Below are positions 8,008 through 61,814 of a stretch of DNA of 64,000 nucleotides, piece by piece (the stretch's first letter is position 1; each line of letters begins with the position of its first letter). Both the position numbers and the translations under genes were made by a program. The notes under the pieces were generated by a model. The model made no database searches. It saw only the letters and a program-made list of their open reading frames with translations, and had not been told where the DNA came from. The stretch covers positions 158,418-222,417 of the forward strand of contig CAKVMI010000003.1 of assembly GCA_934772525.1 (NCBI GenBank), given 5' to 3'. This DNA comes from an uncultured Clostridia bacterium (GTDB taxonomy: Bacteria; Bacillota; Clostridia; Christensenellales; UBA1242).

Positions 8008-8275
8008 TTATTTGGCTTAAACTTAAATAATTTCAGTGCTGAAGTGTGCTTTTTATTTTACAATTATCATATTGCCCATTATTTTAAATATCTCTAATAT
8101 TTATTTTACACAATTTAATTGCAAATATTGTTAAATATCAAACATTTATCTCTTAAGTTAATTATAAAGCTTTGAAATGGTTGCCGAAAATTTAGTTATT
8201 TTTTTTTAAGTTAACTCATTATTTTGATATATTTTTTAAAATGCAGTATAATTAACATTATTAGAGGTAATTTAT

Positions 8276-8941
8276 ATGTATAGTTTTTTATTTAGTAAAA
8301 TTAATGATGTTAGTGAGTCAAATTTGAAAATTTGTAGGCAATATATTAAAAATGATAAAATAGTTGTGTTTCCTTGGACTTTTGCAAGTGAATCAAATTT
8401 AGATGAAGTGAATATAGATTTTTTTTGTTCTGGTGGAAAGCATTATGAAAAATATGTTTCGCAGTTAAGCTTGTTAGGATTTAATAGAGAGAATATAAAA
8501 ATAATTAACCCCTACTTGGTTACAAAAGATGAAATTAAAGATATTTTAGATAATAGTACTTATGCATTTATTCCTGGTGGAAATCCAGAAATGTTTATGA
8601 CTTTAGCAATTAGACTTGGAGTTTTGGACTTTTTTACCAACTATAAAGGCAATATGATTGGTGAAAGCGCCGGCAGTGATTTGCAATTTGAACTATACCA
8701 AATACCAAAATTTAATAATTTTTATGACTGCTCATCTTATTATAACGGGTTTGGTTTAATAAAGGGACAATATATTGTTGATGTACACTCTCAAAAAAAC
8801 AAAAAATATTTAAATGAATTAACCCGATTGGCTCGTATGAAAAACTTAAAGATTTTGACAATAGATAACAATTCTTGTGTTATTGTTAATAGACAAAATA
8901 GTGATATAATCAAAATTGGAAATGTTAGTGAAGTTGAATAG
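8276..8941 (+). CDS. peptidase S51 (dipeptidase E)-like protein
   Basis: 221 aa with an AGAGG RBS. FIPGGNPEMF and GESAGSD blocks resemble the S51 GGN / G-x-SAG nucleophile motifs. Confidence 0.45.
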   Translation: MYSFLFSKINDVSESNLKICRQYIKNDKIVVFPWTFASESNLDEVNIDFFCSGGKHYEKYVSQLSLLGFNRENIKIINPYLVTKDEIKDILDNSTYAFIPGGNPEMFMTLAIRLGVLDFFTNYKGNMIGESAGSDLQFELYQIPKFNNFYDCSSYYNGFGLIKGQYIVDVHSQKNKKYLNELTRLARMKNLKILTIDNNSCVIVNRQNSDIIKIGNVSEVE

Positions 8942-10500: not shown

Positions 10501-11761
10501 AAATTATTTCTCCTTTCATTCCGTCTTTAAATGGTTCTATTAACCTGACATTAACCACTTTGTTTATAAGTGCAATGCAGTCACTTTTTATGTAACACTT
10601 GATGTAACCCTTGGTGTAGCCTTCTAAAAATCCATTTTGGGTAGTTTCTATAAGGACTTCGTCAGTGACGCCTATATTTTCTTTCAAGAACTTATTTTTT
10701 TGTGCGACTTCAAGTTCGGTCATTTTTGCTACCCTGTTCTTTACAATCGAGCCATTAAGTATTCCCCATTTTTCTGCCACCGTGCCATCACGCTTACTAT
10801 ATGGAAAAATGTGCATAAATGCGAAATTGCACTTTTTAACAAAGTCTAAACTATTGTTAAATTCTTCTTCCGTTTCGGTTGGAAAACCAACTATTATGTC
10901 GGTAGATATTGTTGCATTTGGGAAGTAACTACGAATCTTTTCAACCGCTTGCATATATTCTGCCGTTGTATATTTTCGATTCATCTTTTTTAGCGTACTA
11001 TCGTCGCCCGATTGAAGTGCTAAGTGAAAGAATGGACAAAATGCTGGTAACTTTTGAAGTGCGGACAACAATTCGTCTGTAAGGGTTCCCATTTCAAAGG
11101 AAGAAAAACGAAGTCTAACCCCAGGATACATTTTAAATAAATTTACCACATCTACCAGTGTGCATTGTGGGTTTAAATCTTTCCCGAAGCCTGCAATATT
11201 TATGCCAACTAATACGACTTCTAGTGAGTTTTTTGTAACAATATCTAATTCGTTACTAATTGACGAAAGCGTTCTACTACGTTCCCTACCCCTTGTGTAT
11301 GGAATAATGCAATAAGTACAAAAGTTGTTGCAACCGTCTTGAATTTTTATAAACGAGCGAATTCGGTTTCCCGAAATTAAAAAGTTGTCGTTATATTCCC
11401 TTTCTTCGGGGTAATTTGCAAGACCAGTAAAATCACTTAAAATTGCATCCACAATTTTTTCTTTACTGGATGTTCCGAGCACTGCTTTTACATTTGGTCT
11501 ATTTACGTAACTTTCTCTATGCAGTTTACTAGAGCAACCCATAATATAGATTTTTGCGTTGGGATTAATTTTGTTTATCTTTGCAATAATTCCCCTAGAT
11601 TTATGTTCGGCTTCGTTGGTCACTGCACAAGTATTAATAACGTAAACATCAGCAAACTCGAGTGTGGTTGTGGTATCACCATACTCTTTTAGTTTATTTA
11701 TTATCGCTTCACTCTCATAATAATTTACCTTACAACCTAAGGTATAAACGCAAAATTTCAT
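10493..11761 (-). CDS. mtaB: tRNA methylthiotransferase (MtaB-type radical SAM MTTase)
   Basis: Radical SAM CNNFCTYC with an N-terminal MTTase Cys triad. It sits in the conserved rsmE-mtaB context and overlaps the HIT gene by 8 nt. Confidence 0.8.
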   Translation of the reverse strand: MKFCVYTLGCKVNYYESEAIINKLKEYGDTTTTLEFADVYVINTCAVTNEAEHKSRGIIAKINKINPNAKIYIMGCSSKLHRESYVNRPNVKAVLGTSSKEKIVDAILSDFTGLANYPEEREYNDNFLISGNRIRSFIKIQDGCNNFCTYCIIPYTRGRERSRTLSSISNELDIVTKNSLEVVLVGINIAGFGKDLNPQCTLVDVVNLFKMYPGVRLRFSSFEMGTLTDELLSALQKLPAFCPFFHLALQSGDDSTLKKMNRKYTTAEYMQAVEKIRSYFPNATISTDIIVGFPTETEEEFNNSLDFVKKCNFAFMHIFPYSKRDGTVAEKWGILNGSIVKNRVAKMTELEVAQKNKFLKENIGVTDEVLIETTQNGFLEGYTKGYIKCYIKSDCIALINKVVNVRLIEPFKDGMKGEIIYE

Positions 11762-25998: not shown

Positions 25999-28080
25999 TT
26001 ATTTTTTCCTTGAATTGTTTTTAGTTTTTTCAATAGCGTCCGAAAAACTTTCGCTAATGTCATCACCTTTTAATACTTCTCTTTCGGCTGGGTTTGTGCT
26101 TGCACTCTTTTCCCCCGATTGAGCGTCTGTTTTTATGATATTTGATTTTAAGCCGTCTACCAATTCTTCCGTAGTAGTACTTACTTCATTCTCTTCAGTT
26201 TTTGCTAAACTTTCATCTATGTGCTTTATTACTTCTTCACTGGTTGCACCATTCATAATCATATCAACTTCATTTGAATAGATTGTTTCTTTTTGCAATA
26301 GTACATTTGCCATTGTTTCAAGTTTAGATTTATTTTCGGTAATAATACGTTCAGACTCCGCTTCACACTGGTTTAAAATAGACTTAATTTCTTCATCTAT
26401 TAAACTTGCGTAATGTTCGGAGTATGTTGCCCTTTCCATATAATCTTTACCTAAAAAATATGAGTTTTCACTGCCTAAATGCATCAAGCCCGTTTTATTG
26501 CCCATACCCCATTCGGTAACCATTTTTCGAGCAATTCCGGTTGCTCTTTCTATGTCGTTAGATGCACCCGTTGTGTAGTCGCCTATAAATATTTCTTCGG
26601 CTTTTCTACCACTTAGCATCATTGTGATAGTATCTAACAATTTTGTTCTAGATATATGAGTATCGTCAGTATCGGGTCTACTAACTGTATAACCAGCAGC
26701 GCTTCCACGTGGTACTATACTTACTTCGTGAATTGGGTCGCTATTTTTTACAAGTCTTCCTACAACGGCGTGACCAGATTCGTGGAATGCGGTAATTCTT
26801 TTATCCTTATCGGTAATTACTCTACTCTTCTTTTGTGGTCCCATTGTAACTTTATCTATGCCTTCGCTAATATCACGCATATCAATACATTTTTTGTTAT
26901 CACGTGCAGCTAAAATTGCCGATTCATTTAATAGGTTTTCCAGTTCTGCACCAGTAAATCCACTTGTGACTCTGGCAACTTGTTTGAAGTCTACATCGCT
27001 TGCAAACTTTTTATTCCTTGCATGTACATTTAAAATTTCTTCTCTGCCCTTTACATCTGGGACGTGAATATATATTTGACGGTCGAATCTACCCGGTCTT
27101 AAAAGTGCTGGATCCAAAATGTCTACACGGTTGGTTGCTGCAATTACAATTATTCCTTCATTGGTTTCAAAACCATCCATCTGAACTAGTAATTGGTTTA
27201 GAGTTTGTTCTCTTTCATCACTGCCACCGCCCATACCAGTTCCACGCTGGCGACCAATTGCATCTATTTCATCTATAAACACAATACATGGTGCGTTCTT
27301 TTTTGCTTTGTCAAACAAATCACGAACTCTGCTTGCACCTACACCAACGTATAATTCCATAAAGTCGGAACCGCTGATTGTAAAGAATGGAACATTCGCT
27401 TCGCCCGCTATTGCTTTTGCTAGTAATGTTTTACCCGTTCCAGGAGGACCTACCATTAGTACGCCCCTTGGAATTCTTGCACCCATTTGAGTAAATTTAT
27501 ATGGGCTTTTTAAAAATTCTACAATTTCACGAACTTCTGCCTTTTCTTCATCTGCACCTGCAACATCTGAAAAACGAACGGTGCTTAGTGCAACCCTTGC
27601 TCTATTTTTTATAAAATCCATACCTTGCTTGTTGGTTTTACCAATTTGACGAGCAAATATGTAAATTATTAGAATAGCTCCGCCAATCATAACTATTGGC
27701 ATTATTATGTATCCCCACGAGAAGTCTGAAACTATTGTGCTTGTTTTATCTACTTTTATAGTTGCGGTTTTGTTGTACTCATCTATTATTTCATTGATTG
27801 AGTCGCTAAGTCCTGGTCCTATGTAATAGACATTACCGCCCGCTTCCTTTTTATAGAACACTTCAATATAGTTGCTACTAAAATTTACGCTTTCAATTTT
27901 TTCAGCTAATATATCTGTTTTAAATTGAGCTTCGCCAATCTCCTTTTTACTTGTCCAAGTTGTTATAAAAAATAACATAACTACAAGCCCTACAAGGAGT
28001 ACTAGTGACAATATATTTCTTATTGTAGAAGGCTTTGAAGTGTAATTATACTTATCGCCCTGTTTGTTGTTATTTTCCAA
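25999..28080 (-). CDS. ftsH: ATP-dependent zinc metalloprotease FtsH
   Basis: Walker [10 protein letters not shown], Walker B IVFIDEID, zinc site HESGHA and two N-terminal TMs. Confidence 0.95.
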
Positions 28081-28238: not shown

Positions 28239-29000
28239 ATGTTTACTTATATTGATGCAATCATAATAGCAATAGTTTTAATATCTGTAATTATAGGCAT
28301 ATTCAGCGGATTTATTCGTTCCCTTACCAGATTTTGCGGGTTCTTTGTAAAAATTTTAATTTCGTTCTTTTTGTGTAAGCCCATTGCAACACTGCTTTCA
28401 GACAAGACCGCTTTAGGGGATAGTATGCTAAATAAGTTTACCGACTGGGCATCCGGACTTGGCGAAAATTTTAATGTAAACCTTAAAACCGTCGACCACG
28501 AAAATTTAAGTTCATTTATAAAAGATAGTTTGGGTCAAGCAAATATTCCAAAAATATTTAGAGGAATTGTTTCGGGATTATTAAATATCACGCCCGAACA
28601 AATCGCCGGAACGGAATCTATCACCCTTGCCGAAATTGTCGGTAAAGCAGTTTCTACCCTAATATTAATTGTATGCTGTTTTGTTGCTATTTATATTTTA
28701 CTTAGCATTATAATTTGGATATTAAATAGAATAGAACGCAAAATTTTGAAAACCACGAAAATTTTAAGTAAAATTGATAGAACACTTGGTGGGGTGGTTG
28801 GACTACTTTCTGCAGTGGAACTATTGTTTACAATTTGTTTGGTTTTATCTATTTTTAGAAATTCTAGTTTATTTGAAAATTTCTTTACAACATTAAATAA
28901 TTCGGTTATTGGTTCGCCGGTATCAAAATTTATGTTTAGTTTGGTTGATAAAAACTTTGATATATCGGCAACAGTTAATGAATGGATTACATCGAAATAA
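28239..29000 (+). CDS. CvpA-family membrane protein
   Basis: N-terminus MFTYIDAIIIAIVLISVIIGIFSGFIRSL is typical of CvpA; four or five TMs. Confidence 0.55.
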   Translation: MFTYIDAIIIAIVLISVIIGIFSGFIRSLTRFCGFFVKILISFFLCKPIATLLSDKTALGDSMLNKFTDWASGLGENFNVNLKTVDHENLSSFIKDSLGQANIPKIFRGIVSGLLNITPEQIAGTESITLAEIVGKAVSTLILIVCCFVAIYILLSIIIWILNRIERKILKTTKILSKIDRTLGGVVGLLSAVELLFTICLVLSIFRNSSLFENFFTTLNNSVIGSPVSKFMFSLVDKNFDISATVNEWITSK

Positions 29001-29277
29001 AATATCTTTTAAGGATTTGCATTAATTTGCAAGTCTTTTTTTTAATTTTTTGGTTAAGTTTAAAGTTAGTTTTCAACTTTTAATGTTAAAAAATTATTTT
29101 TGTTTTAATAAATTTTTGTTATGAAATCATAACAATATTTCTAATTTTGTTTGTAAAATATTTTGCGAATAGTTATTTTAAGAGTGCTTAATTTAAAAGG
29201 ATTTAAGACGTGTTTAATTTGTGAAAACTTTGTAAATTTGCCGTGAAACAAATTGCATTTTTTATATTTATTTTTAA

Positions 29278-29293
29278 TGTTTCACGTGAAACA
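29278..29293. promoter_or_regulatory. parS site 1 (TGTTTCACGTGAAACA)
   Basis: Exact palindromic match to the ParB/Spo0J parS consensus. Confidence 0.85.
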
Positions 29294-29567
29294 TTTTTCA
29301 ACACCAATGTTGAAAACTCGTGAAATTAATTTTGTTAATTTGGTCGATTGTACGGGATTTCATTTTACATTTTTTGTTCTGTTTTTTGAATATGCGATTT
29401 TTAACAATTTTGGGTTGGTGTTATATTTGTTAATTTTTAGGTTTTTACGTTTAGAATATTTTGTATTCGGGTATCATGGTTGCTATTTTTTGTTTTCGAT
29501 TTTTAACTATGATACTCTATTCACTAGAAGCCTTTTTATATTTTTTGATTGTTTATATTCTTACCAT

Positions 29568-29583
29568 TGTTTCACGTGAAACA
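29568..29583. promoter_or_regulatory. parS site 2
   Basis: Identical 16-mer. Confidence 0.85.
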
Positions 29584-29843
29584 TTTTTTATTTTATGATT
29601 ACTTTATGTATTGCATCAATTTTATTTATGGTGCATATTTAAGATTCATATTATCTACAAGGGCAATGATTTTTATTTTGTGGTTTGCGTGTGCTTATAA
29701 TTACAAAAACTTGATAAAAAATGTATTATAAGTTTTGCAAGAGTGTTTATTTATCTTATTAAATATAATTTAATACTTAAAACACATACAGAATGTTAAA
29801 ATTTGTAATTTATTGTATTTATTAAATAATATATTAGTTAAAA

Positions 29844-29859
29844 TGTTTCACGTGAAACA
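29844..29859. promoter_or_regulatory. parS site 3
   Basis: Identical 16-mer. Confidence 0.85.
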
Positions 29860-30030
29860 TTTTTTTGTTTAAAACTACGTTTATTGTTTTGTAACTATAG
29901 TTATTTATCTTATTTGAAACTAATTAGTACATATTGGTATTATTATTTACTATAATTCATCTGGTGAAAATTTTTTATGTAATATAAATATATCCTATCT
30001 AATTGTTAATAACTTAATATACTTCTGTAA

Positions 30031-30046
30031 TGTTTCACGTGAAACA
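30031..30046. promoter_or_regulatory. parS site 4
   Basis: Identical 16-mer. Confidence 0.85.
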
Positions 30047-30304
30047 TTTATTACTTTCCTTCTATCGTTTATTAAGTAAGTTGCAGGCAAAAGCCACAAA
30101 ACCAATTAAATACTGGCTTATCTAGTGATAATATCACGCTAGGGAAGTAGTATTTACTTCAGAAAAGTATTACTATAAACGAATTTAAAAACGTCATTAA
30201 AAACAATATTAATTTAATTACCCGTAGAAAACACGCAAGTATTTAATGTAGAATACTATTACATTTATGTTATATCAGCACAATATTATCTAAGGTACCC
30301 ATAA

Positions 30305-30320
30305 TGTTTCACGTGAAACA
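30305..30320. promoter_or_regulatory. parS site 5
   Basis: Identical 16-mer. Confidence 0.85.
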
Positions 30321-30492
30321 TTATCTATAATATGTATTAATTCTATTGCACCAGACAACAACTATACGGGTAGCCGATACCTAATGACACAAATTAATAA
30401 ACATCATACCCAAGCCATATAGCATGATAACAATGCATACGCTCAAAGGTAAAACTAGCTATGGCAACAGTCACTCAATTGATAAATGTAAA

Positions 30493-30508
30493 TGTTTCAC
30501 GTGAAACA
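30493..30508. promoter_or_regulatory. parS site 6
   Basis: Identical 16-mer. Confidence 0.85.
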
Positions 30509-30610
30509 TTTGTATTGCAAATTCAGAAAAAAATAGTGCAAGTATATTCTAAAATAAGCATCTGCACCCACATTTTTATTGGTAAAATATGCACAATCGC
30601 AAGTTTACAA

Positions 30611-30632
30611 TTGTCGAACATATGTTCGACAA
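30611..30632. promoter_or_regulatory. perfect 22-bp palindrome containing a LexA (Cheo/DinR) box, CGAACATATGTTCG
   Basis: TTGTCGAACATATGTTCGACAA. The core matches the Gram-positive SOS box CGAACN4GTTCG. Each half also reads as a Spo0A-type TGTCGAA. Confidence 0.5.
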
Positions 30633-30918
30633 AGCCGAATTGGGAAGTTTACGCTGTTCGGTCGATAAATTATTCATAAGGCATATTACTTGCCAAAAAC
30701 GGGCAAATTTGGGGCTATTTCATTTTTGATATATTTTGCGAATAGTTTATAAATTTTAGTCGTTTGTTCCTAAAAATTTTCTGTTCGAGCAAAAAATCTT
30801 TATCGCACAACAAAAATATTTGTCAACAAATTTAAAAATTTTTATTTTTCGGTATTGAAATTTTTTACAAAATGTGTTAATATTACCACCACAATTAAAT
30901 TAAGGGGGACAATTTAAA

Positions 30919-31764
30919 TTGGAAAATAATAACTATACGGTTGAAGACCGTTTAATAAAATATAACAATTCGGTTTTCCGCAACAGTATAAAGGTTGGAT
31001 TTGCTAACTTAAAAATAAAAAACGCCGGGACTTTACACAATTTAAAGAATAAAATTTTAACACCATTCTGTGGCAATGAATCTATTGAAGCAAAATCTGC
31101 AAGCGAAAGATATAAAGCCTATCAAGAAAATTATCTAAATAAACTTGGTGGCAAAAAAGGTGTTGCAAACCTTACACATAACGAGTCTAGAGGGAAAGAC
31201 CTGGTAACCGAATCAATTTTATTAATGCATAACGAAATTCCATATCTAGTTAGCAAAACTACAAAAGTCTTTTATGACCCAGAACACCCAAATATATATA
31301 GTGAAAAGGTTATCCGAACCTATCGTGGGCTTATGACAACCAAATTTGGCCGTTTTCAGTATTTTGATATAGAGCGAACCGACCACACACTTTTTTATTT
31401 CGATAAGTCAGTTAGTTCATTTGCAAACTTTAAAGTGTACACGGATATTTCCTCTACAAAACTAATTTTAGGTAAAAAGCATTTTAGAGCAACTTACGAT
31501 AACCAACTTTCTTCTAAAACTAATTATTTTGAAGCAAATAAAGATACCTGCCTGCAAGCGTACAATAGCGAAGTTGGTTTGAATGGAAAAATTGAAAGCG
31601 TTAAAAACAGCTTACAAAAACAATTTGAAAGCACTCTAGTAAAAGCGGAAGACGTAGAAATTACCAATACGTTAGAGCAACTAATTGCAAAAGAATTAAA
31701 TAGAAATTCAGCCACTTTAGAAACCAACAATAATCTGTCTTCAATTATTAACCCAGAAATATAG
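30919..31764 (+). CDS. hypothetical 281-aa protein (TTG start)
   Basis: Upstream lie a TTGAAA-17-TAATAT promoter-like element (about 30856-30884) and an AAGGGGGA RBS. No motif was recognised. Confidence 0.5.
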   Translation: MENNNYTVEDRLIKYNNSVFRNSIKVGFANLKIKNAGTLHNLKNKILTPFCGNESIEAKSASERYKAYQENYLNKLGGKKGVANLTHNESRGKDLVTESILLMHNEIPYLVSKTTKVFYDPEHPNIYSEKVIRTYRGLMTTKFGRFQYFDIERTDHTLFYFDKSVSSFANFKVYTDISSTKLILGKKHFRATYDNQLSSKTNYFEANKDTCLQAYNSEVGLNGKIESVKNSLQKQFESTLVKAEDVEITNTLEQLIAKELNRNSATLETNNNLSSIINPEI

Positions 31765-32118: not shown

Positions 32119-32541
32119 ATGAGCGTATATTATGTAATAGGAAGCGATTCCGAAATTAAAAATATTGATAAACTAAATTTGGGATTCGAAAAAACTACAA
32201 ACTTAAAAAACTATATTACAAATTGTGATTTTAACAAAAAGTTCTATTATGTTTCTGACCCTGTTTTATTTGAACTAGGTTTCGACATAAAAAATCTTAA
32301 TAATTTTTATGTTGATGAAAACAAAAATAGAATGATTAACTTTATTGATTTTTTAAAGACTAACATAAATAATAGTTCGATAGAATTTTATAAATTTTGG
32401 TCAATTTTTAATGGAACAGAAAAGACTGGAAACGACGTAAATTATATATATCAAGAGATTTCATATAACTTAAAAGACTTCCGTCTTCCAGATGATAAAT
32501 TCCAATTTGACTTTAATACTAAATATATTTTTTATCTCTAA
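32119..32541 (+). CDS. hypothetical 140-aa protein
   Basis: Intact ORF with an AAGGA RBS. It is N/K/F-rich and no motif was recognised. Confidence 0.5.
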   Translation: MSVYYVIGSDSEIKNIDKLNLGFEKTTNLKNYITNCDFNKKFYYVSDPVLFELGFDIKNLNNFYVDENKNRMINFIDFLKTNINNSSIEFYKFWSIFNGTEKTGNDVNYIYQEISYNLKDFRLPDDKFQFDFNTKYIFYL

Positions 32542-32630: not shown

Positions 32631-33644
32631 CTATCTATGTAAAATATTATAAATTCTATCTAGGTCATCCTTTGAATAGTATTCAATAATAATTTTACCT
32701 TTGCGGTCGTTTCCTTGAATAGATGCCTTTGTAGAGAACATCCTTTGAAGTTGAGTGGTAAAATCTTGCAATTCTAAACTTTGTACATAGGATGCTTTTC
32801 TTTTTGGAACTTGGTTTGTGCTTATCATATTTTGAATATACTTTTCTAGTTCTCTTACACTTGCCTTGCTTTGAACCGCCATAAGGGCTGTTTTTAACTG
32901 CAATTCACGGTCTTCTATTCCTACAAGGACTTTACCATGTCCGGCAGTTAACTCGCCTCTTTCGATCATTTTTACAATCTCCGGGCGAAGCGCTAAAAGT
33001 CTTAATGTGTTTGTAACTGCCGTACGGCTTTTGCCAATTTTTTCAGCAATTTCTTCTTGAGTTAAATTAAATCTTTCTACCAATTCTTTTATTGCAAATG
33101 CTGATTCTATAGGGTTTAAGTCTTCTCTTTGAAGGTTTTCAATTAAAGAGATTTCGGCAATTTCTTGTTCGGTGTATCTCTTAATAATTGCGGGAATAGT
33201 TTTTAGTCCTGCAAGTTTACTTGCTCTAAAACGTCTTTCACCTGAAACTATCATATACCTATCGCCCTTTTTAACAAGAATAATAGGTTGAATAACGCCA
33301 TGTGCTTTTATGCTTTGTGCAAGTTCATTAAGTGCATTTTCATTAAAGTTTTTACGAGGTTGTCCGATATTTCGGTCAATTAGTCCTAGTGGAATTTCTC
33401 GTGGGGTAGGGTCGCCTGGCACTTCAACAATTTTTTCTACAATCTTTTCTACCGGCTTCTCTACAATCTTTTCAACTATTTTTTCTACTGGCTTTTCTAC
33501 AATCTTTTCCACAACCTTTGGCTCGGTAGCAACCGAACTAGTCTTTGCTGGGGTTTCTTTTTTAGGGGTCATAACCAAATCTTCTGGTTCGTCATCAATA
33601 CCACCAAATAGTGCATCAAGCCCCCTTCCTAAACGTGAACTCAT
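32631..33644 (-). CDS. parB: chromosome partitioning protein ParB/Spo0J with an (EKIV/EKPV)n repeat insertion
   Basis: N-terminal LGRGLDALF, ParB box GERRFRAS and an HTH (QEEIAEKIGKSRTAVTN). Residues 44-74 are VEKIVEKPVEKIVEKIVEKPVEKIVEKIVE. Confidence 0.9.
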   Translation of the reverse strand: MSSRLGRGLDALFGGIDDEPEDLVMTPKKETPAKTSSVATEPKVVEKIVEKPVEKIVEKIVEKPVEKIVEKIVEVPGDPTPREIPLGLIDRNIGQPRKNFNENALNELAQSIKAHGVIQPIILVKKGDRYMIVSGERRFRASKLAGLKTIPAIIKRYTEQEIAEISLIENLQREDLNPIESAFAIKELVERFNLTQEEIAEKIGKSRTAVTNTLRLLALRPEIVKMIERGELTAGHGKVLVGIEDRELQLKTALMAVQSKASVRELEKYIQNMISTNQVPKRKASYVQSLELQDFTTQLQRMFSTKASIQGNDRKGKIIIEYYSKDDLDRIYNILHR

Positions 33645-34456
33645 TATTTCTTAGCCCTCCTTTTATCATCTACAGCTGGCTTTTTGTAAGCAATTCCATT
33701 TTTTGTAAGAATTTCTTCGGCAAGACTCATATAAGACTTAGCACCTACGCAAGATTTATCGTACATGCAAATAGGAAGTCCGTGGCTTGGCGCTTCGGCT
33801 AAACGAATGTTACGTGGAATAGTAGTTTCATAAACGCTATTTGTAAAATGCTTTTTAATTTCGGCTGAAACTTGTTGACCCAAACTTGAACGATTATCCT
33901 TCATTGTAAGCAATACACCTTCAATTTGAATATCTGGGTTAAGTTTTTTCTTAATTAGTCTAATGGTATTCATTAGTTGACTTAAACCTTCTAGTGCGAA
34001 GAATTCACATTGGATAGGTATTAAAACCGAATCGGCACTAGTTAATGCGTTAATTGTTAAAAGCCCAAGAGATGGTGGACAGTCTATTGTAATAAAATCA
34101 TAACTGTCTCGTACCTTATCTAATAATCTTTTAATAATTTTCTCACGAGATTCCATATAAACCATTTCAACTTCAGCACCGGCAAGTTCGTTGTTTGCTG
34201 GAAGGATATCAAACCCTTCTATTGGCGAATGTTGAATAACTTCTTCTATGGTAGCATCTCCAACTATCAAATCATAAACCGACTTCATATCGGCATTTTT
34301 TCTAACCCCAACACCACTACTGGCATTTCCTTGTGGGTCAATATCAATCAGCAAGACCTTTTTGCCAAGACTTGCAAGGGAAGCGGAAGTGTTTACACAA
34401 CTAGTTGTTTTGCCAACTCCGCCCTTTTGGTTCGCAAATGCGATTATCTTTCCCAT
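33644..34456 (-). CDS. parA: ParA/Soj partition ATPase
   Basis: Deviant Walker A NQKGGVGKTT. Its stop overlaps the parB start (TAATG). Confidence 0.9.
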   Translation of the reverse strand: MGKIIAFANQKGGVGKTTSCVNTSASLASLGKKVLLIDIDPQGNASSGVGVRKNADMKSVYDLIVGDATIEEVIQHSPIEGFDILPANNELAGAEVEMVYMESREKIIKRLLDKVRDSYDFITIDCPPSLGLLTINALTSADSVLIPIQCEFFALEGLSQLMNTIRLIKKKLNPDIQIEGVLLTMKDNRSSLGQQVSAEIKKHFTNSVYETTIPRNIRLAEAPSHGLPICMYDKSCVGAKSYMSLAEEILTKNGIAYKKPAVDDKRRAKK

Positions 34457-35018: not shown

Positions 35019-36131
35019 TTACAAATTCACTAAAATGCTTTTTACTCTTGGCATAAAGACATTATATATATTCACAAGTTCGTTTGTCACCTTTTCTACA
35101 TCAAGGTCAAAATCATAACTTGTTGTATTATAAAGTAGGTCATTTACTCGGCAAGAGCCTGTTTTCCTGTAATATTTTCCAAATCTGCCAATTCTTGTTG
35201 CTATTTTATTGTAATTTCTATCCCAAACAAGCTCATAACCAATTTGGTTTTCAATCTCGTTTTTCTGAAAATAAAGTCTTTCATAAATATTTTTTGCATC
35301 TGCACTCGGAAAGAAAACGCAAATATCTTTTAAATATCCGTTTACAACTCTTGCGTTTACCATAATCTTATTGAATGACAAATCGCTTGTTTTACGAATA
35401 TCAAAATGTTCACAATTATTTTTGTATTTTACAACAAAATCTGAGTAATTTATTTTAAAATATTCTGCTAATTTATTAAAGAAATCTCTTCTTATCTTTT
35501 CTTCATCACCTATTTCAGAAACTTTCATTTCTATTTCGGGACAAGTATTTTTCAATTTTGAAGAAACCACCATATTACGCGGATTTGTTTGAATATTATC
35601 CAAAGCTTCATTTTCCTTGTCGTAAATTTCTATGCCACAATCTTCATAGGCTTTTAGCGGATTTTCACGATGTTTCCTATATCCCAAAGCATTTAATTGT
35701 TTGTCTTCATCCTTTGTTATCCAACAAAGTCGTTGCATTGCGATAAGTTCTTTAATTTTTTCTACATCTAATTTACCTTCTTCACAAAGCTCAAGCAATT
35801 TAGTTTTGAAATCGAAAGCTGTCGTCATGTGTTCATCTACAAAATGTTGATGAACTACAATTCTTGTCCCGTCATTTGTTTTAACTGAACTCAACCAGTC
35901 ATAATCCCTTATGTCTTTGCCTGTCAAATTATAAAATTCGGTATAAGCTTTTACACTTGCCAAATGTTTTGGAAATTTTGATAAAACCCACTCGTCGTGA
36001 CTTGCCCTGTCAAATATCCACTTATTCGCAACTGTAGGATTGTGAACCATTGCTTGGGTATAATCTAGCAGCATCTTGCACCAAGTATCAAAATCCTTTT
36101 CCTTATCTTTAATTTTCTTATTGGTATTCAT
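35019..36131 (-). CDS. hypothetical 370-aa protein (C-terminal half DUF4268-like by eye)
   Basis: Intact ORF with a GGAGAAAA RBS. The N-terminal half has HQHFVDEH and CWITKDEDKQLN blocks of unclear meaning. Confidence 0.5.
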   Translation of the reverse strand: MNTNKKIKDKEKDFDTWCKMLLDYTQAMVHNPTVANKWIFDRASHDEWVLSKFPKHLASVKAYTEFYNLTGKDIRDYDWLSSVKTNDGTRIVVHQHFVDEHMTTAFDFKTKLLELCEEGKLDVEKIKELIAMQRLCWITKDEDKQLNALGYRKHRENPLKAYEDCGIEIYDKENEALDNIQTNPRNMVVSSKLKNTCPEIEMKVSEIGDEEKIRRDFFNKLAEYFKINYSDFVVKYKNNCEHFDIRKTSDLSFNKIMVNARVVNGYLKDICVFFPSADAKNIYERLYFQKNEIENQIGYELVWDRNYNKIATRIGRFGKYYRKTGSCRVNDLLYNTTSYDFDLDVEKVTNELVNIYNVFMPRVKSILVNL

Positions 36132-36269: not shown

Positions 36270-37073
36270 CTAATAAATCTTTATTGTTTGCATTGAGTGG
36301 GGAATTGCCTTTTTGCCGGTTTCTTCTTCAAACCTTTTTTGCATCACTAGCAACACTTCCACCACGACGAGCAATCTTCTTATTTTTTTCAAAAGTCTTT
36401 GTATTTTCTTGTTTTGAAATCGTTGTTGTAGTGACTTCTGCAAGTATATTAAGGACAAGTTCAATATTTGTCATATTGTCACGCAAATTTTCTTTTTTCA
36501 AGCCTTTTAATTGTTTGTATTCTTTCACACTCATTCCAGACCATGCCTTTGTCATTTCATTTGAGAGTATCGCATAATCTTTTTCTTTTGTTATACCATG
36601 ATTTTTCCATTCATCGGTAAGTTCTTTTCGCATTTCAATGGTTTGAAGTCTTTGATTTATCCAACCTTCTGTATATCCTTTTTCACGATAAAAATCTGCG
36701 CCACGAACAATCGCCTTTTCTGGATCGGCAATTTCATCAAGCCTTTCGCTACCAACTTGTGCAAGCCACATTTTAAAAGGTTCCACTTTCTTACTTGGAA
36801 TAGATTGAACAAGACGAAGTAAATCTTTTGTGTTGACAACATCGGTTAGTCTTGATTTGCCATCTTTCGCAATCATTCTCAACTGTCCGATTTTTTCGGG
36901 CAGTCCACTTCCTTCATCTTTTAATTTAATTTTTAAATCATTCCAATATTTTCTAGGTTGGACACTACCTATCAATGCTTCAATTACATCAACAGCAGAA
37001 AAATACCAATCTTCTTCCGTTTCATTCCATTGTGTTCTGATTTTTTATCTTCAAAAACCTTAATATTAGACAT
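36270..37073 (-). pseudogene. Bro-N / DinD-like (DNA-damage-inducible protein D family) gene disrupted by two homopolymer frameshifts
   Basis: The ATG at 37073 gives MSNIKVFEDKK and then leaves the frame at an A6 run (plus-strand T6, 37041-37046). Adding one A restores IRTQWNETEEDWYFSAVDVIEALIGSVQPRKYW, continuous with ORF 36328-36975. A second A6 run (36335-36340) truncates the C-terminal GGSVASDAK-RFEEETGKKAI tail. Confidence 0.65.
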
Positions 37074-40880: not shown

Positions 40881-41519
40881 TTATACTACGCTTGAGGTTT
40901 CATCTTGATTTTCGGCAAGGCTAATACTACTAATACTTATTTCATAAGCGGTCTTAATCTCGTCCGTTCCGTCTTCGTGCTTTTTGGTATAGTTTCGGCT
41001 TTGAATTCTGCCTAGTAGCGTTACCTTTTCGCCAACTTGCAAACTATTTACAAACCTTGCATTTCTGCCCCAAGCAATACATGGAATATAGTCGCTTTTA
41101 TTATACGCACGATTTACCGCTATTAAGCAATCGCATATTTCTCTACCAAATGGGGTGGTTCTATAAATTGGTTGCTTACATAAAAATCCTGTTAAACTAA
41201 TAGTATTGGAGTTTTCTTGGTCTATATCTCCCGTTAATTCCTTTGCAAAAAGGGTTAATACCAATTTACTTTTGCCATCTACAAGTTTATTATAACTTCT
41301 AAATTCGCCGTCTATAGTTACACTATCTCCAACTTTTACATTATTTAAAAGTCTTTCGGAAACCGTAACTGGTATTGTGTCACTTTCGGCGGATAGTCTT
41401 GGAACTTCAAGTTTCATATCATAAAAACCTTCGCCCAAAATTAAATGGCTAAACTTTGGTTCTTCTGATACCTTTCCAGAGCACCTGGCTAAATTGTTTT
41501 TTTCGTAATTTGTGTTCAT
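40881..41519 (-). CDS. tandem OB-fold single-stranded-DNA-binding-like protein
   Basis: Two repeats fit the SSB-like pattern: N-x-(A/I)-x-(C/L)-x-G, an internal R-x-S or R-x-Y with D(T/Y)IP, VGD/VGE-x-VT, and a closing G-(E/R)-(F/I)-(R/Q)-S-(Y/R)-N. There is no acidic SSB tail consensus. Confidence 0.45.
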   Translation of the reverse strand: MNTNYEKNNLARCSGKVSEEPKFSHLILGEGFYDMKLEVPRLSAESDTIPVTVSERLLNNVKVGDSVTIDGEFRSYNKLVDGKSKLVLTLFAKELTGDIDQENSNTISLTGFLCKQPIYRTTPFGREICDCLIAVNRAYNKSDYIPCIAWGRNARFVNSLQVGEKVTLLGRIQSRNYTKKHEDGTDEIKTAYEISISSISLAENQDETSSVV

Positions 41520-44766: not shown

Positions 44767-46620
44767 CTATTTTAGGTTAAATAAAAGTACACTAATATCC
44801 GCAGGGCTTACGCCACTTATTCTAGACGCTTGCCCAATTGTTAATGGTTTAACTTCATTTAATTTTTGTTGTGCTTCAATTCTTAGCCCCAAAATAGTAG
44901 AATAATCTAGGTCTTTACTTAGTGGACGATTTTCTAGTTTGCGGTTTTTCTCTACTACTTGTAATTGCTTTTCAATGTAACCACTATATTTAACTTCAAT
45001 ATTTATTTCATCTATTACATCTATAGTAAAATCATTAAAAATACCAAATCTTTCATTTAATAATCTTGCACTTAGGTTTGTTCTTTTTATTAATGTTTCT
45101 ACACTAATTCCAGTTACTATGGTTGCTTCATTTCGTTCGGTCAAAAAGTCGTTCATTTCCTTGGTTGGCTTCATAATTCTTTTTAGAACTTCTTTTGCTC
45201 TTTCCATTTCAGCGCATTTATGCTTAAACCTATTGTACCTTTCATCGGTTACAAGCCCAACTTGTCTTCCAATTTCGGTTAAACGCATATCGGCATTATC
45301 TTGACGCAATAATAACCTATATTCCGCTCTACTAGTCATCATTCTGTATGGCTCATTAGTTCCCTTGGTTACAAGGTCATCTATCAGTACCCCTATATAA
45401 CTCGAATCTCTTGATAAAACTATCTCGTCCATATTTCGTACATACAAACTAGCGTTAATTCCAGCAACAATTCCTTGTGCGCCCGCTTCTTCGTATCCAC
45501 TGGTTCCATTTATTTGCCCCGCTGTATAAATGCCTTTTACCTTTTTAAATCCAAGCGTTGGAAATAGGTCGGTGCAATCAATAGCATCGTACTCTATTGC
45601 ATAACCAAACTTTAAAATTTTAGTTTTTTCAAGCCCTAAAATGCTTGCAACCATTTGCTCTTGAATATCTTTTGGCATAGATGTACTCATACCTTGCAAA
45701 TAGATACTATCGTTTCGAATGGTTTCGGGTTCCAAAAATATTTGATGACGCTCTTTGTCCTTAAATCTTACAATTTTAGTTTCAATACTTGGACAATACC
45801 TTGGGCCAATTCCCACAATAGTTCCACTGTACATTGGAGCTTTATCTAGGTTATCCAAAATGATTTTATGAGTGTTTAAATTAGTGTATCCAAGATAGCA
45901 ACTCAAAATATTTTTTGGCTTAAAGTCGGACATATATGAAAAGGTTTGAATATTATCTTCGCCCTTTTGCTCAATAAACTTCGAGTAATCTATAGTGTCG
46001 TGGTCTAAGCGGGGTGGTGTACCCGTTTTAAACCTAACTACCTTAAAACCTAGGTCTATTAAACTTTTAGTTAAATTTTTACTATTACTAAAGCCCGCGG
46101 GGCCAGAGTCTTTTATAATCTCACCCGTAATTGTTCTACTGTTTAAATATACGCCTGTACATATTACAACTGCTTTAGTTTTAAACTCTCTACCATCCGC
46201 CGTTTTAACGCCCGTTACCTTTTCGCCATCGCTTATTATTTCACTTGCTTCACCTTCGGTAATATCTAGGTTTGGTTGGTTTTTTAGCACATCTAACATA
46301 ATACTATGATAAAGGTCTTTATCTACTTGTGCACGCAAACTATGAACGGCTGGACCCTTGCTTTCATTAAGTAATCTTAGTTGCAAGGTTGCAAGGTCTG
46401 CAGATACACCCATTTGCCCGCCAAGAGCATCTATTTCGCTTACAAGTTGACCCTTTGCCGTACCACCAATACTTGGATTACAAGCCAAAAAACTTACGCC
46501 GTTAAAATCTAGCGTAATTAATAGTGTTTTTACACCCGTTCTACTAAGTGCAAGCGTTGCTTCAACGCCCGCATGTCCACCACCTATTACAATGGCTTCA
46601 TAAACATTTTTTTCTTCCAT
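44767..46620 (-). CDS. mnmG: tRNA uridine 5-carboxymethylaminomethyl modification enzyme MnmG (GidA)
   Basis: FAD motif VIGGGHAGVEA; 617 aa collinear with GidA. Confidence 0.95.
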   Translation of the reverse strand: MEEKNVYEAIVIGGGHAGVEATLALSRTGVKTLLITLDFNGVSFLACNPSIGGTAKGQLVSEIDALGGQMGVSADLATLQLRLLNESKGPAVHSLRAQVDKDLYHSIMLDVLKNQPNLDITEGEASEIISDGEKVTGVKTADGREFKTKAVVICTGVYLNSRTITGEIIKDSGPAGFSNSKNLTKSLIDLGFKVVRFKTGTPPRLDHDTIDYSKFIEQKGEDNIQTFSYMSDFKPKNILSCYLGYTNLNTHKIILDNLDKAPMYSGTIVGIGPRYCPSIETKIVRFKDKERHQIFLEPETIRNDSIYLQGMSTSMPKDIQEQMVASILGLEKTKILKFGYAIEYDAIDCTDLFPTLGFKKVKGIYTAGQINGTSGYEEAGAQGIVAGINASLYVRNMDEIVLSRDSSYIGVLIDDLVTKGTNEPYRMMTSRAEYRLLLRQDNADMRLTEIGRQVGLVTDERYNRFKHKCAEMERAKEVLKRIMKPTKEMNDFLTERNEATIVTGISVETLIKRTNLSARLLNERFGIFNDFTIDVIDEINIEVKYSGYIEKQLQVVEKNRKLENRPLSKDLDYSTILGLRIEAQQKLNEVKPLTIGQASRISGVSPADISVLLFNLK

Positions 46621-46629
46621 TTTTATTCC

Positions 46630-47982
46630 TTATTTACCCAAACAGAACTTACTAAATACACTATCTAGTATGGTTTCATTTGAAGTATTTCCCGTAATTT
46701 CTCCAAGTTTTACATAAGCTTCATTTAAGTCTACTGAGACGGCATCAAGGGTCGTTCTATTTAACCCATCTAACGCCAAAATTAAACTTTGCTTTGCCTT
46801 TTGAAGTGCATCAAAGTGACGGGTTGACGTAATTATCAAGCCATCTCCTTGTACACGTCCCTTTATAACAAGTTCGTATATAGACTGCTTAATTTTATCT
46901 ATGCCTTCGCCCGTCACGCAAGAAGTGTAAATGCCATCTTTTTTACGAACACCAGTATATTTATCCACCTTATTATAAATGGTTAAATATTTTTTTCCGC
47001 TTAGCATACTTAATATTTTTGCGTCTTCTGAATCTAAACACTTAGAACTATCCACAATAAATAGTACAATGTCTGCTTTATTTATCAAATCTATACTCTT
47101 TTTTACACCCAGAAGTTCTACTACATTATCGGTATTTCTAATTCCCGCAGTATCCAAAATATTAACCTTTATGCCGTTTACTTCAAAGGCGTCTTCAATT
47201 ACATCTCTTGTGGTTCCCGCAATATCGGTTACAATGGCTTTATCCTTATTAAGCAAGGCGTTTAATAGTGAAGATTTACCAACATTAGGTTTACCAATCA
47301 AGCAAGCATTTATTCCGCTTGAAATTAATGCACCGCTTGAATATGTACTAATCAAACTATCAATATCGGCAATTAATTCATTCAGCCCACTTTTTAGTTT
47401 GGTTTCTTCCATATACTCAATGTCTTCTTCAGGGTAATCAAAACTCACTTCAACTTCGCTAATAAGGTCTACAACTTTCTTTTGATATTCGTTAATTTTT
47501 TTTGTAAGTCCGCCATCCGAAATCGTTTTATTTGCCTTAATTTCAGCGTCCGATGTGGCATTTATTAAACCTATCATACCTTCGGCTTCACAAAGTGACA
47601 TCTTTCCATTTAAAAATGCACGTAACGAAAACTCTCCGTTTCGTGCCAACCTTGCGCCCTTTTCAATGCACGCTTCAATTACTCTATTTGTGAGTTTAAC
47701 TCCGCCATGACACTGAAATTCTACCGTAGTTTCGCCCGTAAAACTTTTGTTATCAAACACTACGCAAAGTGCGGTATCCGAAACCTTTTCCGACTTAAAT
47801 TCACCAAGGACCAACTCTCTTTTTCTAAATTCCGACGGCTTTTTTCCGCCCTTACTCAAAAATAGCGAATCGGCAATTTTTACGGCGTCCGTTCCACTAA
47901 TTCTTACAATACCAATGCCACCAGCACCAACAGGGGTAGACAGTGCAACAATGGTATCCTTTAACCCAAAATTATCTAACAT
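46630..47982 (-). CDS. mnmE: tRNA modification GTPase MnmE (TrmE)
   Basis: G domain GKPNVGKSSLLN, DTAGIR and the C-terminal CLGK. Confidence 0.95.
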   Translation of the reverse strand: MLDNFGLKDTIVALSTPVGAGGIGIVRISGTDAVKIADSLFLSKGGKKPSEFRKRELVLGEFKSEKVSDTALCVVFDNKSFTGETTVEFQCHGGVKLTNRVIEACIEKGARLARNGEFSLRAFLNGKMSLCEAEGMIGLINATSDAEIKANKTISDGGLTKKINEYQKKVVDLISEVEVSFDYPEEDIEYMEETKLKSGLNELIADIDSLISTYSSGALISSGINACLIGKPNVGKSSLLNALLNKDKAIVTDIAGTTRDVIEDAFEVNGIKVNILDTAGIRNTDNVVELLGVKKSIDLINKADIVLFIVDSSKCLDSEDAKILSMLSGKKYLTIYNKVDKYTGVRKKDGIYTSCVTGEGIDKIKQSIYELVIKGRVQGDGLIITSTRHFDALQKAKQSLILALDGLNRTTLDAVSVDLNEAYVKLGEITGNTSNETILDSVFSKFCLGK

Positions 47983-48751: not shown

Positions 48752-48991
48752 ATGAAAAGACTTTTAATAAAACTTATTTTAGTTTACCAAAAGTTTTCGG
48801 CCCATAAACCTAATAAATGCCGAATGAGTCCAACTTGTTCAAACTATGCAATAGTTGCATTAAATAGATTTGGGGTAATTTCAGGCTCGTGGCTTATTAT
48901 TAAAAGGCTTTTTAGATGTGGTTTTTCACGCGGGGTACAAGTGGATAACGTTCCACACAACATAAAAGGAGATTTTAAATGGCTAATATAA
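48752..48991 (+). CDS. yidD: membrane protein insertion efficiency factor YidD
   Basis: CRMSPTCSNYA and RLFRC motifs. Confidence 0.85.
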   Translation: MKRLLIKLILVYQKFSAHKPNKCRMSPTCSNYAIVALNRFGVISGSWLIIKRLFRCGFSRGVQVDNVPHNIKGDFKWLI

Positions 48992-50106
48992 CCAATCTAC
49001 TATTAGAAGTAGCAAAACCTTCGGGTTGGTGGGCTTCTATATATTACTGGCTAGAAAGTTTTATACTAAACTACGGCTGGACAATTTTAATATTTACAAT
49101 ATTTGTAAAACTACTAATGACCCCGTTAGACTTTTTTAATAGATATTCATCTAGAAAAAATACCTTTATTCAAAAGCGTCTAACCGGTCAAGTTCAAAAA
49201 ATTAACGAAAAATACAAAAACAATCGTGAAAAAGCAAATGCCGAAACTCAAGCACTTTATAAAAGAGAAGGCTACAATATGTTTGGAACTTGTATTTTTT
49301 CGCTTCTAAACATTGTACTAACTTTATTCGTATTTATCTCATTTTTTAACACTCTTCGAAATATAAGTGCATACAAGATGGTAGAACAATACACCATTTT
49401 AGATAGTACCTATACCGAGTGCCAAACCAAAGGCTTAACCAAAGAACAAACAGATGAAATACTTATTCAAAAGTATGATGAAATCTCTAAGGATAACCAC
49501 TGGTTATGGGTTAAAAACATTTGGAAGAACGATTCAAGCGTTTCGATTGTTCCAGATTACACCGCACTAAAAAATGCAACTAGTTCAGCAAGTGACAAAA
49601 AATGGCGTGACACCTATTTTAATTCCGAGAATGAATTATACATTGCCGAAGACCGCTACAACGAAATAATGACACCAATCATAAATGCAAACACGGGTTG
49701 GAACGGTTACTTTATATTAGCAATTCTTGCAGGCGTACTAAGTTTTCTATCTCAGTTTATTGCAGAACTATCCAACAAATCTAAAAAAGCAAAAGATATT
49801 CAATCTTCGTCTCCAACCGATATGCAAATGCAAACTACTATGAAGGTTATGAAACTTATTCTTCCTGCAGTCTCTGTAATCTTTGCATTATCTAACCCAG
49901 CAGCGTTTGGTATCTACCTAATTACAAGTTCACTAATGGGTATTATTACAAACTTCTTAATTGGCTTAATTGTAGCAAAGATGACTAGAAAGGAAGAAGA
50001 CAAATATTTAGCATATCTAGAAAAAGAAGCAATAAATAATTTAAAAAGACAAAAAAAGCAACCACCACAAATGGTAAACTACAAACCAATTATCAAAAAG
50101 TTTTAA
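48979..50106 (+). CDS. yidC: YidC/Oxa1 family membrane insertase
   Basis: Position after yidD, multi-TM, KLLMTPL helix and a basic C-terminal tail. Confidence 0.85.
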   Translation: MANITNLLLEVAKPSGWWASIYYWLESFILNYGWTILIFTIFVKLLMTPLDFFNRYSSRKNTFIQKRLTGQVQKINEKYKNNREKANAETQALYKREGYNMFGTCIFSLLNIVLTLFVFISFFNTLRNISAYKMVEQYTILDSTYTECQTKGLTKEQTDEILIQKYDEISKDNHWLWVKNIWKNDSSVSIVPDYTALKNATSSASDKKWRDTYFNSENELYIAEDRYNEIMTPIINANTGWNGYFILAILAGVLSFLSQFIAELSNKSKKAKDIQSSSPTDMQMQTTMKVMKLILPAVSVIFALSNPAAFGIYLITSSLMGIITNFLIGLIVAKMTRKEEDKYLAYLEKEAINNLKRQKKQPPQMVNYKPIIKKF

Positions 50107-57188: not shown

Positions 57189-57840
57189 TTTACCTATCCT
57201 TAAATCTACTCTACTATTATTATAATTTATATTTTTAATATAAATACTTGCATTTAAAAACAACTAAATACAAAAAATAAATTAATAATAATTATAAATA
57301 TTATAAACTAATTTGCCAGATTTTGCAAGTACTAGTGTACATTTTATCTGACCTTTTGCATTAATCTTTTTAAATCTCTTGCATAAAAAAAACGTTATTA
57401 ACTTGCGTTACAAAAACCTTTTCATCAAATCATTACCAAATTTTATTAACTTACTATATAATTAATTTTTATATTAATTATAAATAAAATTAATATAATA
57501 AAAAAATTTTTCCCGTGCAATAAATTGCATTTGCAATATAAAAAATATATATATATTATTATAAAATGCACTTATCCGTAAATCAAATCATCATTTGTTT
57601 TATAAATTATATTTATATTAATATATAATACGCTTGTCCGTGTTATAAGTTATTTTTATATTATATTAAATATTAATTAATTTTTAACGGCAGTTGTGCT
57701 TGTTGCGTAATAAGTGTAAGCATATAAAACTATTTACTTATAATTTTATTTTTTAATTTAAATAACTATTAATAAATAATATAAATATTATTTATAGTTA
57801 TATATATATTATAATAGTTATAATATTGATATTTTATTTA

Positions 57841-57890
57841 ATAAAAATCTGCCCCCAATATCAATATAAAAATCCGCCCCCAATATCAAT
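57841..57890. repeat. two tandem 25-bp copies of ATAAAAATC(T/C)GCCCCCAATATCAAT
   Basis: Read directly; there is one mismatch between the copies. Confidence 0.9.
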
Positions 57891-58406
57891 TGCATAATCA
57901 GGCGTATGCATACACACTCACACCTAAAATTAATATTACGCGTACGCATACTCACACACGCGTATAATTAATTTTACACACACGCATGCGTACACACACC
58001 CCTAATAATAATATCACGCATGAACATACTCACGCACACATACACGCTCCTAATAACAATTACTAGGCATATGCGTACATACACGCCTAATATTAATATT
58101 ACACGTACGCCTAAACGCATGCACCTAAAAATAATATTAGATGCACCCGCCTAGTAATAATACTAGACGCGCACCCGTTTATAATAATTAATACTAGGAG
58201 TGCATACACGTATACGCCCCTAAAATTAACATTACGCATACGAAAGCACGCACGCCCCTAAAAATAATATTAGGCGTACCCGCCTAGTATCAATACTAGA
58301 TGCATACGTGCGCATACGCTCCTAATAATAAATACTAGGCACGCCCACGCATACCCGCCCCTAATAATAAATACTAGGCACGCGCACGTACGTACGCCCC
58401 TAATTA
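57891..58406. repeat. degenerate array of 13 units: CCTA-AT-rich palindrome-TAGG alternating with G+C-rich purine/pyrimidine-alternating tracts
   Basis: CCTA anchors lie at about 57922, 57999, 58048, 58086, 58110, 58124, 58150, 58218, 58257, 58283, 58320, 58359 and 58398. The last four are regularly spaced at 37-39 bp. Confidence 0.8.

Positions 58407-59876: not shown

Positions 59877-61814
<1,938 letters not shown>

Follow-up and report, generated by a model that had tools for sequence, protein, structure and literature searches.

Why would a bacterial chromosome keep six copies of one palindrome in a single stretch of little more than 1.2 kb that holds no gene? The question is raised by a 64-kb stretch of DNA from an uncultured Clostridia bacterium (64,000 nucleotides of contig CAKVMI010000003.1, hereafter the window), in which an earlier reading of the letters, the sequence-only reading, had noticed a packed array of parS, the chromosomal site of the partition protein ParB (Spo0J in Bacillus subtilis). 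We favor the interpretation, at a probability of about 0.88, that the array is a chromosomal centromere whose six canonical parS sites would load the ParB encoded 2.1 kb away. The core of the sequence-only reading, in which canonical parS sites, next to a canonical ParA/ParB pair, occupy a dedicated non-coding stretch close to the origin of replication, is supported at the level of sequence.

Six perfect parS sites in a gene-free island

A search tolerating up to two mismatches returned exactly six matches to the 16-mer TGTTTCACGTGAAACA in the window, all of them perfect, with starts at 29278, 29568, 29844, 30031, 30305 and 30493. Successive starts are 290, 276, 187, 274 and 188 bp apart, and the density is 6 sites per 1.23 kb, or about 1 per 245 bp. 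All six sites fit the chromosomal parS consensus tGTTNCACGTGAAACa perfectly. Five of them extend to the perfect 20-bp palindrome AATGTTTCACGTGAAACATT, namely parS1 (29276-29295), parS3 (29842-29861), parS4 (30029-30048), parS5 (30303-30322) and parS6 (30491-30510). In parS2 (29566-29585) the 16-bp core is perfect and the 20-mer has one mismatch (ATTG...). Beyond the palindrome with some AT-rich bases at its flanks, repeat searches found no sequence shared between the copies. The positions, the spacings, the five 20-mers, the identity of the palindrome as chromosomal parS and the unrepeated nature of the DNA between copies, as given by the sequence-only reading, were thus all reproduced. No long-period tandem repeat was detected in the window array, which accordingly lacks the regular repeat unit of plasmid centromeres. 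Across this array and those of the relatives described below, the spacings (105-330 bp) showed no shared helical period, as judged by inspection only.

At up to two mismatches, the chance expectation for TGTTTCACGTGAAACA in 64 kb is 0.08, and six matches were reached in 0 of 100 shuffles. Outside the array, the window contained no further match at this tolerance. A relaxed search, with three mismatches and N at the two variable consensus positions, added four scattered weak matches that were chance-like. Contigs of the same species reach about 8 kb past each end of the window, and no parS was found in these flanks either, giving about 80 kb scanned in total.

The array lies in an AT-rich island (29001-30918; 21-29% GC) between cvpA (28239-29000, plus strand, assigned by Pfam) and a gene of 281 codons, orf281 (30919-31764, plus strand). 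No open reading frame (ORF) in the island exceeds 108 amino acids, and those present are T-rich frames that cross the parS sites. An Rfam search of the island gave no family even at E = 1, the sole entry being RsaJ with 17 bits against a threshold of 100 bits, and no tRNA was found between 29001 and 30918. The ORF scan agrees with the earlier description of a 1.9-kb stretch without a credible ORF. A hidden gene or RNA was considered and rejected, based on the short T-rich frames, the missing Rfam match and the lack of spacer conservation against the related locus L001 (see below). On its left side, a terminator-like hairpin followed by a T-run (29011-29038, plus strand) lies 3' of cvpA, where it would block read-through into the array, and on its right side orf281 is transcribed away from the array. 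The island thus appears to be shielded from the flanking transcription units.

The cognate ParB and ParA

The parB gene (32631-33644, minus strand) encodes a protein of 337 amino acids with matches to Pfam ParB_N (7.7e-32), HTH_ParB (1.5e-34) and ParB_C (5.6e-06). Directly upstream and in the same operon lies parA (33644-34456, minus strand), the stop of which overlaps the parB start; its product is a Soj-type Walker ATPase of 270 amino acids (AAA_31, 9.1e-71; also CbiA and ParA). These Pfam results bear out the parA-parB operon that the sequence-only reading had placed at 32631-34456, 2.1 kb from the array. The predicted ParB combines an N-terminal CTP-binding domain carrying the GERRxR motif, a helix-turn-helix and a C-terminal dimerization domain, and its partner is a Soj/ParA Walker ATPase. 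The motifs LGRGLDALF, GERRFRAS and ENLQREDLNPIE were all present. When the protein was aligned with 19 homologues, little or no variation was seen in the LGRGL peptide, the CTP-binding motif GERRxRA, the ENLQREDLNPIE box and the helix-turn-helix. The best relatives of known structure are Myxococcus xanthus ParB, the Spo0J proteins of Thermus and B. subtilis, and the ParB-parS complexes of Helicobacter pylori and Caulobacter; KorB is also among the solved relatives.

Noc and its Noc-binding sites (NBS) were considered as an alternative pair and rejected. The protein passes the NCBIfam ParB domain model and reaches 212.7 bits with the Noc model against a cut-off of 315 bits, and the site is parS rather than the NBS palindrome, which is of the ATTTCCCGGGAAAT type. 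The one peculiarity of this ParB is a low-complexity (VEKI/VEKP)n insertion (33400-33600, codons ~17-80). It lies in the linker that joins the ParA-interacting N-terminal peptide to the CTP-binding domain and explains the roughly 40 additional amino acids of the protein. The insertion is common to the 85-89% relatives and absent from relatives of about 300 amino acids.

Position beside the replication origin

Cumulative GC skew declines along the window to a minimum, or turn, near 58-59 kb, so that the window probably represents the left flank of oriC. The same location is indicated by the distance to dnaA and by the synteny of mnmG (44767-46620, minus strand), mnmE (46630-47982, minus), yidC (48979-50106, plus), dnaN (54479-55582, minus), dnaA (55788-57263, minus), recF (58615-59706, plus) and gyrB (59910-61814, plus), all assigned by Pfam. 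A DnaA-box search for oriC gave no clear cluster, and oriC was placed from gene order and the skew turn. Measured from the array, the near end of dnaA is 25.3 kb away and the probable oriC about 27-28 kb, and the figure of about 27 kb from dnaA in the sequence-only reading holds up in these terms. At the GC-skew minimum, a gap of 1.35 kb (57264-58614) separates the diverging pairs dnaA-dnaN (minus strand) and recF-gyrB (plus strand), and this split dnaA-dnaN-recF-gyrB order is common to loci L005, L007, L098 and L099.

The array in related genomes

Close relatives were collected by exact-protein look-ups that led from ParB homologues to the contigs encoding them, and each locus was then scored for its number of parS sites. 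In a contig of the same species (L088, ParB 100% identical), five perfect sites and one with a single core substitution are spaced by 188, 274, 187, 277 and 288 bp. The substituted site is the counterpart of parS2, the window site that already falls short of the full 20-mer. Since one site has decayed in a conspecific strain, individual sites are redundant. A somewhat more distant locus (L097, orf281 87% identical) has five perfect sites in the same gap between cvpA and orf281 (299, 281, 277 and 188 bp), and six perfect sites occupy this gap in four independent samples with 89% ParB identity (L001-L004; 187, 199, 165, 175-176 and 267 bp). At 88% identity, L091 has at least three perfect sites (320 and 330 bp) on a contig that begins within a site; its array lies upstream of the orf281 homologue, and parAB is inverted relative to the array. 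At 78%, L092 has at least two sites, 105 bp apart, and the contig ends there.

Further away, at 68% ParB identity, five perfect sites (135, 157, 117 and 121 bp) fill a 640-bp gap between the convergent parB and cvpA genes (L005, L006). A single site, and hence no spacing, was found at the contig end of L007 (65%), and L093 (62%) has three near-perfect sites of the variant TGTTTCACGTGGAACA in the same gap, spaced by 121 and 122 bp. The array is thus a stable trait of the clade, with a site number of 3-6. The sequence-only reading had proposed conservation of the desert and of the site number in relatives as a check; the array is indeed kept at the same locus, and the number of sites varies from 3 to 6.

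The same comparisons bear on the explanation that the palindrome is a generic dispersed repeat, similar to repetitive extragenic palindromic (REP) elements or miniature inverted-repeat transposable elements (MITEs), or an assembly artefact, with a coincidental likeness to parS. In favor of this, the sequence is a perfect and short palindrome located in AT-rich DNA between genes, and the contigs of L007, L091, L092 and L094 end at or near such arrays. Against this stand the exact match to the parS consensus and the lack of other copies, be it in the roughly 80 kb scanned for the species, where the many copies of a REP or MITE family were not seen, or in the 20-kb loci of relatives. Moreover, independent samples and assemblers yielded the same array, and near-identical arrays in independent assemblies (L088, L097, L001-L004) argue that it is not an assembly artefact. 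We consider this explanation extremely improbable. With regard to assembly, the contigs of L007, L091, L092 and L094 start or stop at or near the parS array, which suggests that such arrays break short-read assemblies and are under-represented in metagenome-assembled genomes (MAGs).

Selection on the sites and growth of the array

Between the window and L001, the DNA of parB, parA, cvpA and ftsH is 78-83% identical. Alignment scores of the five spacers are at the level of shuffled sequence (z from -0.5 to 1.7), whereas no 20-mer differs. In the closer comparison with L097, three spacers can be aligned with 73-76% identity (z = 14-20), and all five L097 sites retain the 16-bp core with the adjacent AA/TT bases; at this spacer divergence about 26 neutral changes per 100 bp are expected, by our own estimate from the spacer identities. 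The parS sites are therefore under strong purifying selection while the spacers drift, and selection has maintained them across related genomes. Among 20 clade sites, the core is flanked on either side by two nearly invariant bases (AA...TT), and the two beyond these are strongly biased (A...T), giving an extended clade consensus of 24 bp, AAAATGTTTCACGTGAAACATTTT.

An indication of how such arrays arise comes from L093, where a 121-bp unit is repeated 2.2 times with 88% identity (10930-11195), each copy carrying the parS variant TGTTTCACGTGGAACA. All three L093 sites have one shared A-to-G variant. The repeat suggests that the arrays of the clade grow by tandem duplication of a parS-bearing unit, and L093 is a young array, soon after duplication. 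A tandem-repeat origin was also looked for within the window and none was seen, the duplication signature being confined to the distant relative L093. Site number changes later by remodelling inside the array: the array center, around parS3, is remodelled between the window with six sites and L097 with five. The relatives can accordingly be viewed as an evolutionary series, from birth by tandem duplication through spacer drift to the gain, loss or decay of sites, with the 20-bp palindrome held fixed.

Comparison with other parS clusters

The background frequency of tight clusters was estimated by a ParB-alignment scan of species-representative genomes, which gave 80 diverse loci among the matches listed, mostly from Clostridia and with 35-56% identity. 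Sites were counted with at most one mismatch, N being allowed at consensus positions 5 and 12, and the maximum number in any 1.5 kb was recorded. This maximum was 0 in 29 of the 80 listed loci, 1 in 18, 2 in 21, 3 in 9, 4 in 2 and 5 in a single locus, and no locus reached 6. Among these listed matches, 33 loci therefore had at least two sites per 1.5 kb and 12 had at least three. The locus with five sites (L073, a Lachnospiraceae MAG, 8026-8893) has them directly upstream of parA with spacings of 184, 184, 178 and 306 bp, in a gap of 1 kb without ORFs of 70 amino acids or more except for short overlaps at the edges. Despite the spacing near 184 bp, Tandem Repeats Finder detected no long-period repeat in L073. 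In each of two further loci (L009, 9414-9872; L013, 11599-13010), a gap downstream of parB that is free of long ORFs contains four sites. These three unrelated Clostridia MAGs resemble the window in having 4-5 consensus sites (at most one mismatch) within 0.45-1.4 kb beside parAB; they differ in that the sites are fewer and some imperfect, and no description of them was found in the literature.

The window array is thus the densest met in the survey and among the relatives, yet it lies in the upper tail of a continuum. In most bacteria parS sites are clustered within 5-40 kb, and scatter is confined to a few lineages including Bacilli (PMC8357415). The earlier statement that chromosomal parS sites are usually scattered must therefore be reversed, clustering being the norm and scatter a peculiarity of Bacilli (PMC8357415). 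The view of the array as a dense and dedicated non-coding block stands as regards density and the absence of genes, but not as regards its being exceptional, given the similar clusters among the 80 listed loci. It is a compact instance of a well-known arrangement and not a new type of system, and its exceptional status had been overstated.

The verified cluster of Corynebacterium glutamicum consists of ten identical 16-bp sites of the B. subtilis-type consensus, nine of them intergenic, located 73 kb from oriC, and serves as a hub for ParB nucleation and SMC loading (PMC7083940). Its ten sites extend across 35 kb, or about 1 per 3.5 kb, whereas the six of the window lie in a single intergenic stretch of 1.23 kb; the C. 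glutamicum cluster has been verified experimentally, whereas the window array is known from sequence. Caulobacter crescentus likewise has at least five sites near parAB on one arm close to the origin, and its ParB covers about 10 kb (PMC5815017). New parS sites are best tolerated there beside the existing cluster (PMC5815017), which would explain cluster growth. In contrast to the window sites, which are all perfect and gene-free, the Caulobacter sites are not uniform in sequence or affinity, and some are located within genes. B. subtilis shares the identical 16-bp consensus and the same ParB family, but its eight to ten sites are spread over about 0.75 Mb, an exception among bacteria (PMC8357415).

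The dense layout had also been likened to a plasmid centromere, and the array could accordingly be the centromere of an integrated plasmid, integrative and conjugative element or prophage rather than of the chromosome. Plasmid centromeres of the F sopC type consist of regular tandem units of plasmid-specific sequence beside the partition operon. As in these, the window has a dedicated, iterated and non-coding array of ParB sites next to parAB, and insertions carrying DUF4268 and Bro-N genes lie nearby at a tRNA-Arg and are absent from L001-L004. The likeness does not extend further: the spacings range irregularly from 187 to 290 bp, the spacers have neither mutual similarity nor a regular repeat unit, the sites have the chromosomal consensus and context, and ParB groups with chromosomal ParB/Spo0J proteins. 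The interval from cvpA to parA contains no gene for replication, an integrase or conjugation. The housekeeping order of cvpA and ftsH (25999-28080, minus strand, Pfam), the array, parBA, and ndk with ssb (40881-41519, minus strand, Pfam) and mnmG is kept in relatives down to 62% ParB identity, which places the array in the chromosome rather than in a plasmid or mobile element. The plasmid-centromere comparison was therefore abandoned, and an origin from such an element is very improbable.

Edge motifs, a LexA-type box and orf281

Besides parS, the island contains two related units near its edges. The left-edge unit (29116-29174, plus strand) consists of the palindrome TTGTTATGAAATCATAACAA (29116-29135), about 22 nt and the 16-mer TATTTTGCGAATAGTT (29159-29174). 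The right-edge unit (30694-30747, plus strand) has the inverted repeat TTGCCAAAAACGGGCAA (~30694-30710), again about 22 nt, and TATTTTGCGAATAGTT (30732-30747). Both share the same orientation, and the TATTTTGCGAATAGTT 16-mer occurs nowhere else in the window. The motif is kept in L001, L088, L097 and L091, though the spacers there are scrambled. No consensus RNA fold was found for the edge units.

The right-edge unit overlaps the -35 element of a sigma-70-like promoter candidate on the minus strand (30696-30669; TTGGCA, 16 nt, AATAAT), which aims at parS6 through the sequence CGAACATATGTTCG (30615-30628). The hexamers of this candidate (TTGRCA, 16 nt, AATAAW) are kept in L001 and L091, and the spacer between them is not. 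A hairpin with U7 near 30563-30522 could terminate a minus-strand transcript of about 140 nt. No conserved ORF was found downstream of the promoter-like site, and the fold of the putative 140-nt transcript was no better than that of shuffled sequences (z = -1.3). We take CGAACATATGTTCG to be a perfect LexA/SOS box of the Firmicute type. It is the sole CGAACNNNNGTTCG match in 64 kb, and is embedded in the palindrome TTGTCGAACATATGTTCGACAA (30611-30632). Located about 290 bp upstream of orf281 and 105 bp away from parS6, it is downstream of the minus-strand promoter-like site. The LexA-type box is conserved in three lineages (L001, L091 and L097).

The adjacent orf281 encodes an orphan protein of 281 amino acids that belongs to no family in Pfam, PHROGs or NCBIfam and of which the databases contain just two homologues. 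Its evolution is fast, with 45% identity to its L001 counterpart (ParB 89%) and 30% where ParB is 88% identical. The gene adjoins the array in the window, L001, L091 and L097, is absent where ParB is 62-68% identical, and stands beside the array in every relative that has the edge or LexA-type motifs. The edge motifs, the LexA-type box and the promoter-like site may simply represent ordinary regulation of orf281. Alternatively, these features taken jointly could make the island a bounded and regulated centromere module, beyond a stack of parS sites, which we regard as quite unlikely. Under that joint reading, a factor bound to the edge units may keep ParB clamps within bounds or mark out the loading zone, and DNA damage may change the activity of the centromere by way of orf281, a small RNA or transcription under SOS control.

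A related possibility is that the array is mainly a bank of regulatory operators, in which KorB-like ParB clamps loaded at the sites would slide to the promoters of orf281, cvpA/ftsH and parAB and silence them, with segregation as a secondary role. Every site is intergenic, parS6 lies about 350 bp upstream of a promoter-like site of orf281 (30855-30883), and KorB is among the solved relatives of the window ParB. In Pseudomonas aeruginosa, the intergenic sites parS3 and parS4 repress adjacent genes (PMC7022226). However, relatives with 62-68% ParB identity keep 3-5 sites between the convergent ends of parB and cvpA, with neither orf281 nor a promoter, and six perfect sites far exceed the needs of an operator. 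The canonical chromosomal ParA/ParB pair and the position near the origin fit segregation. A mainly regulatory array is hence quite unlikely, although regulatory and segregation roles are not mutually exclusive.

Proposed mechanism and its weak points

For the chromosomal centromere that we favor, the mechanism can be taken from the established ParABS/CTP-clamp model (PMC8357415, PMC7083940, PMC5815017). By analogy, the helix-turn-helix of a ParB dimer would recognize each palindrome of 16-20 bp, and binding to parS would cause the N-terminal gate to close in a CTP-dependent manner. The clamp so formed would then slide off parS to the flanking DNA, and the vacated site would be reloaded. With six sites per 1.23 kb, the loading flux at one point of the chromosome could be up to about six times that of a single site. 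The expected outcome is a single concentrated ParB focus about 27 kb left of oriC, a dense partition complex acting as the ParA cargo in segregation and as the entry point of SMC. One tight cluster would avoid the SMC collisions caused by distant loading sites (PMC8357415), and the non-coding position would exclude RNA polymerase from the loading zone.

Several points weigh against this interpretation. ParB binding, CTP loading, ParA interaction and SMC recruitment are all assigned by homology, and the benefit of six sites is assumed, a single parS being sufficient for segregation in C. glutamicum and P. aeruginosa. Further parS sites may be present in the genome beyond the roughly 80 kb scanned. 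The conserved edge motifs are not parS and fall outside the centromere model, and the conserved minus-strand promoter-like site that faces the array means that the description of the island as transcription-free is not airtight.

The array illustrates how compact a natural chromosomal centromere can be, with six perfect sites in a gene-free block of 1.2 kb in an uncultured gut lineage. Arguably, tight parS clustering beside parAB is common in Clostridia, and the ParABS model itself is unchanged by it. The array would also be a handy natural substrate for single-molecule studies of cooperation or interference between neighboring parS sites in ParB-CTP loading.

Other features of the locus

Between orf281 and parB lies an ORF of 140 amino acids (32119-32541, plus strand) that belongs to no family. 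It is present in the conspecific loci L088 and L089 and absent from L001-L004 and L097, so that it probably represents a recent insertion. On the other side of parA, the segment 34804-36975 holds a tRNA-Arg(TCG) and then two minus-strand genes, one with DUF4268 (35019-36131) and one of the Bro-N/phrog_15286 type (36328-36975). The two genes are missing between parA and ndk in L001-L004, and the conspecific L088 has other genes there; the segment resembles a small insertion, of mobile-element or phage origin, next to the tRNA gene. The host has a GC content of about 32%, and an identical GyrB was found in many samples, including a Hadza gut metagenome.

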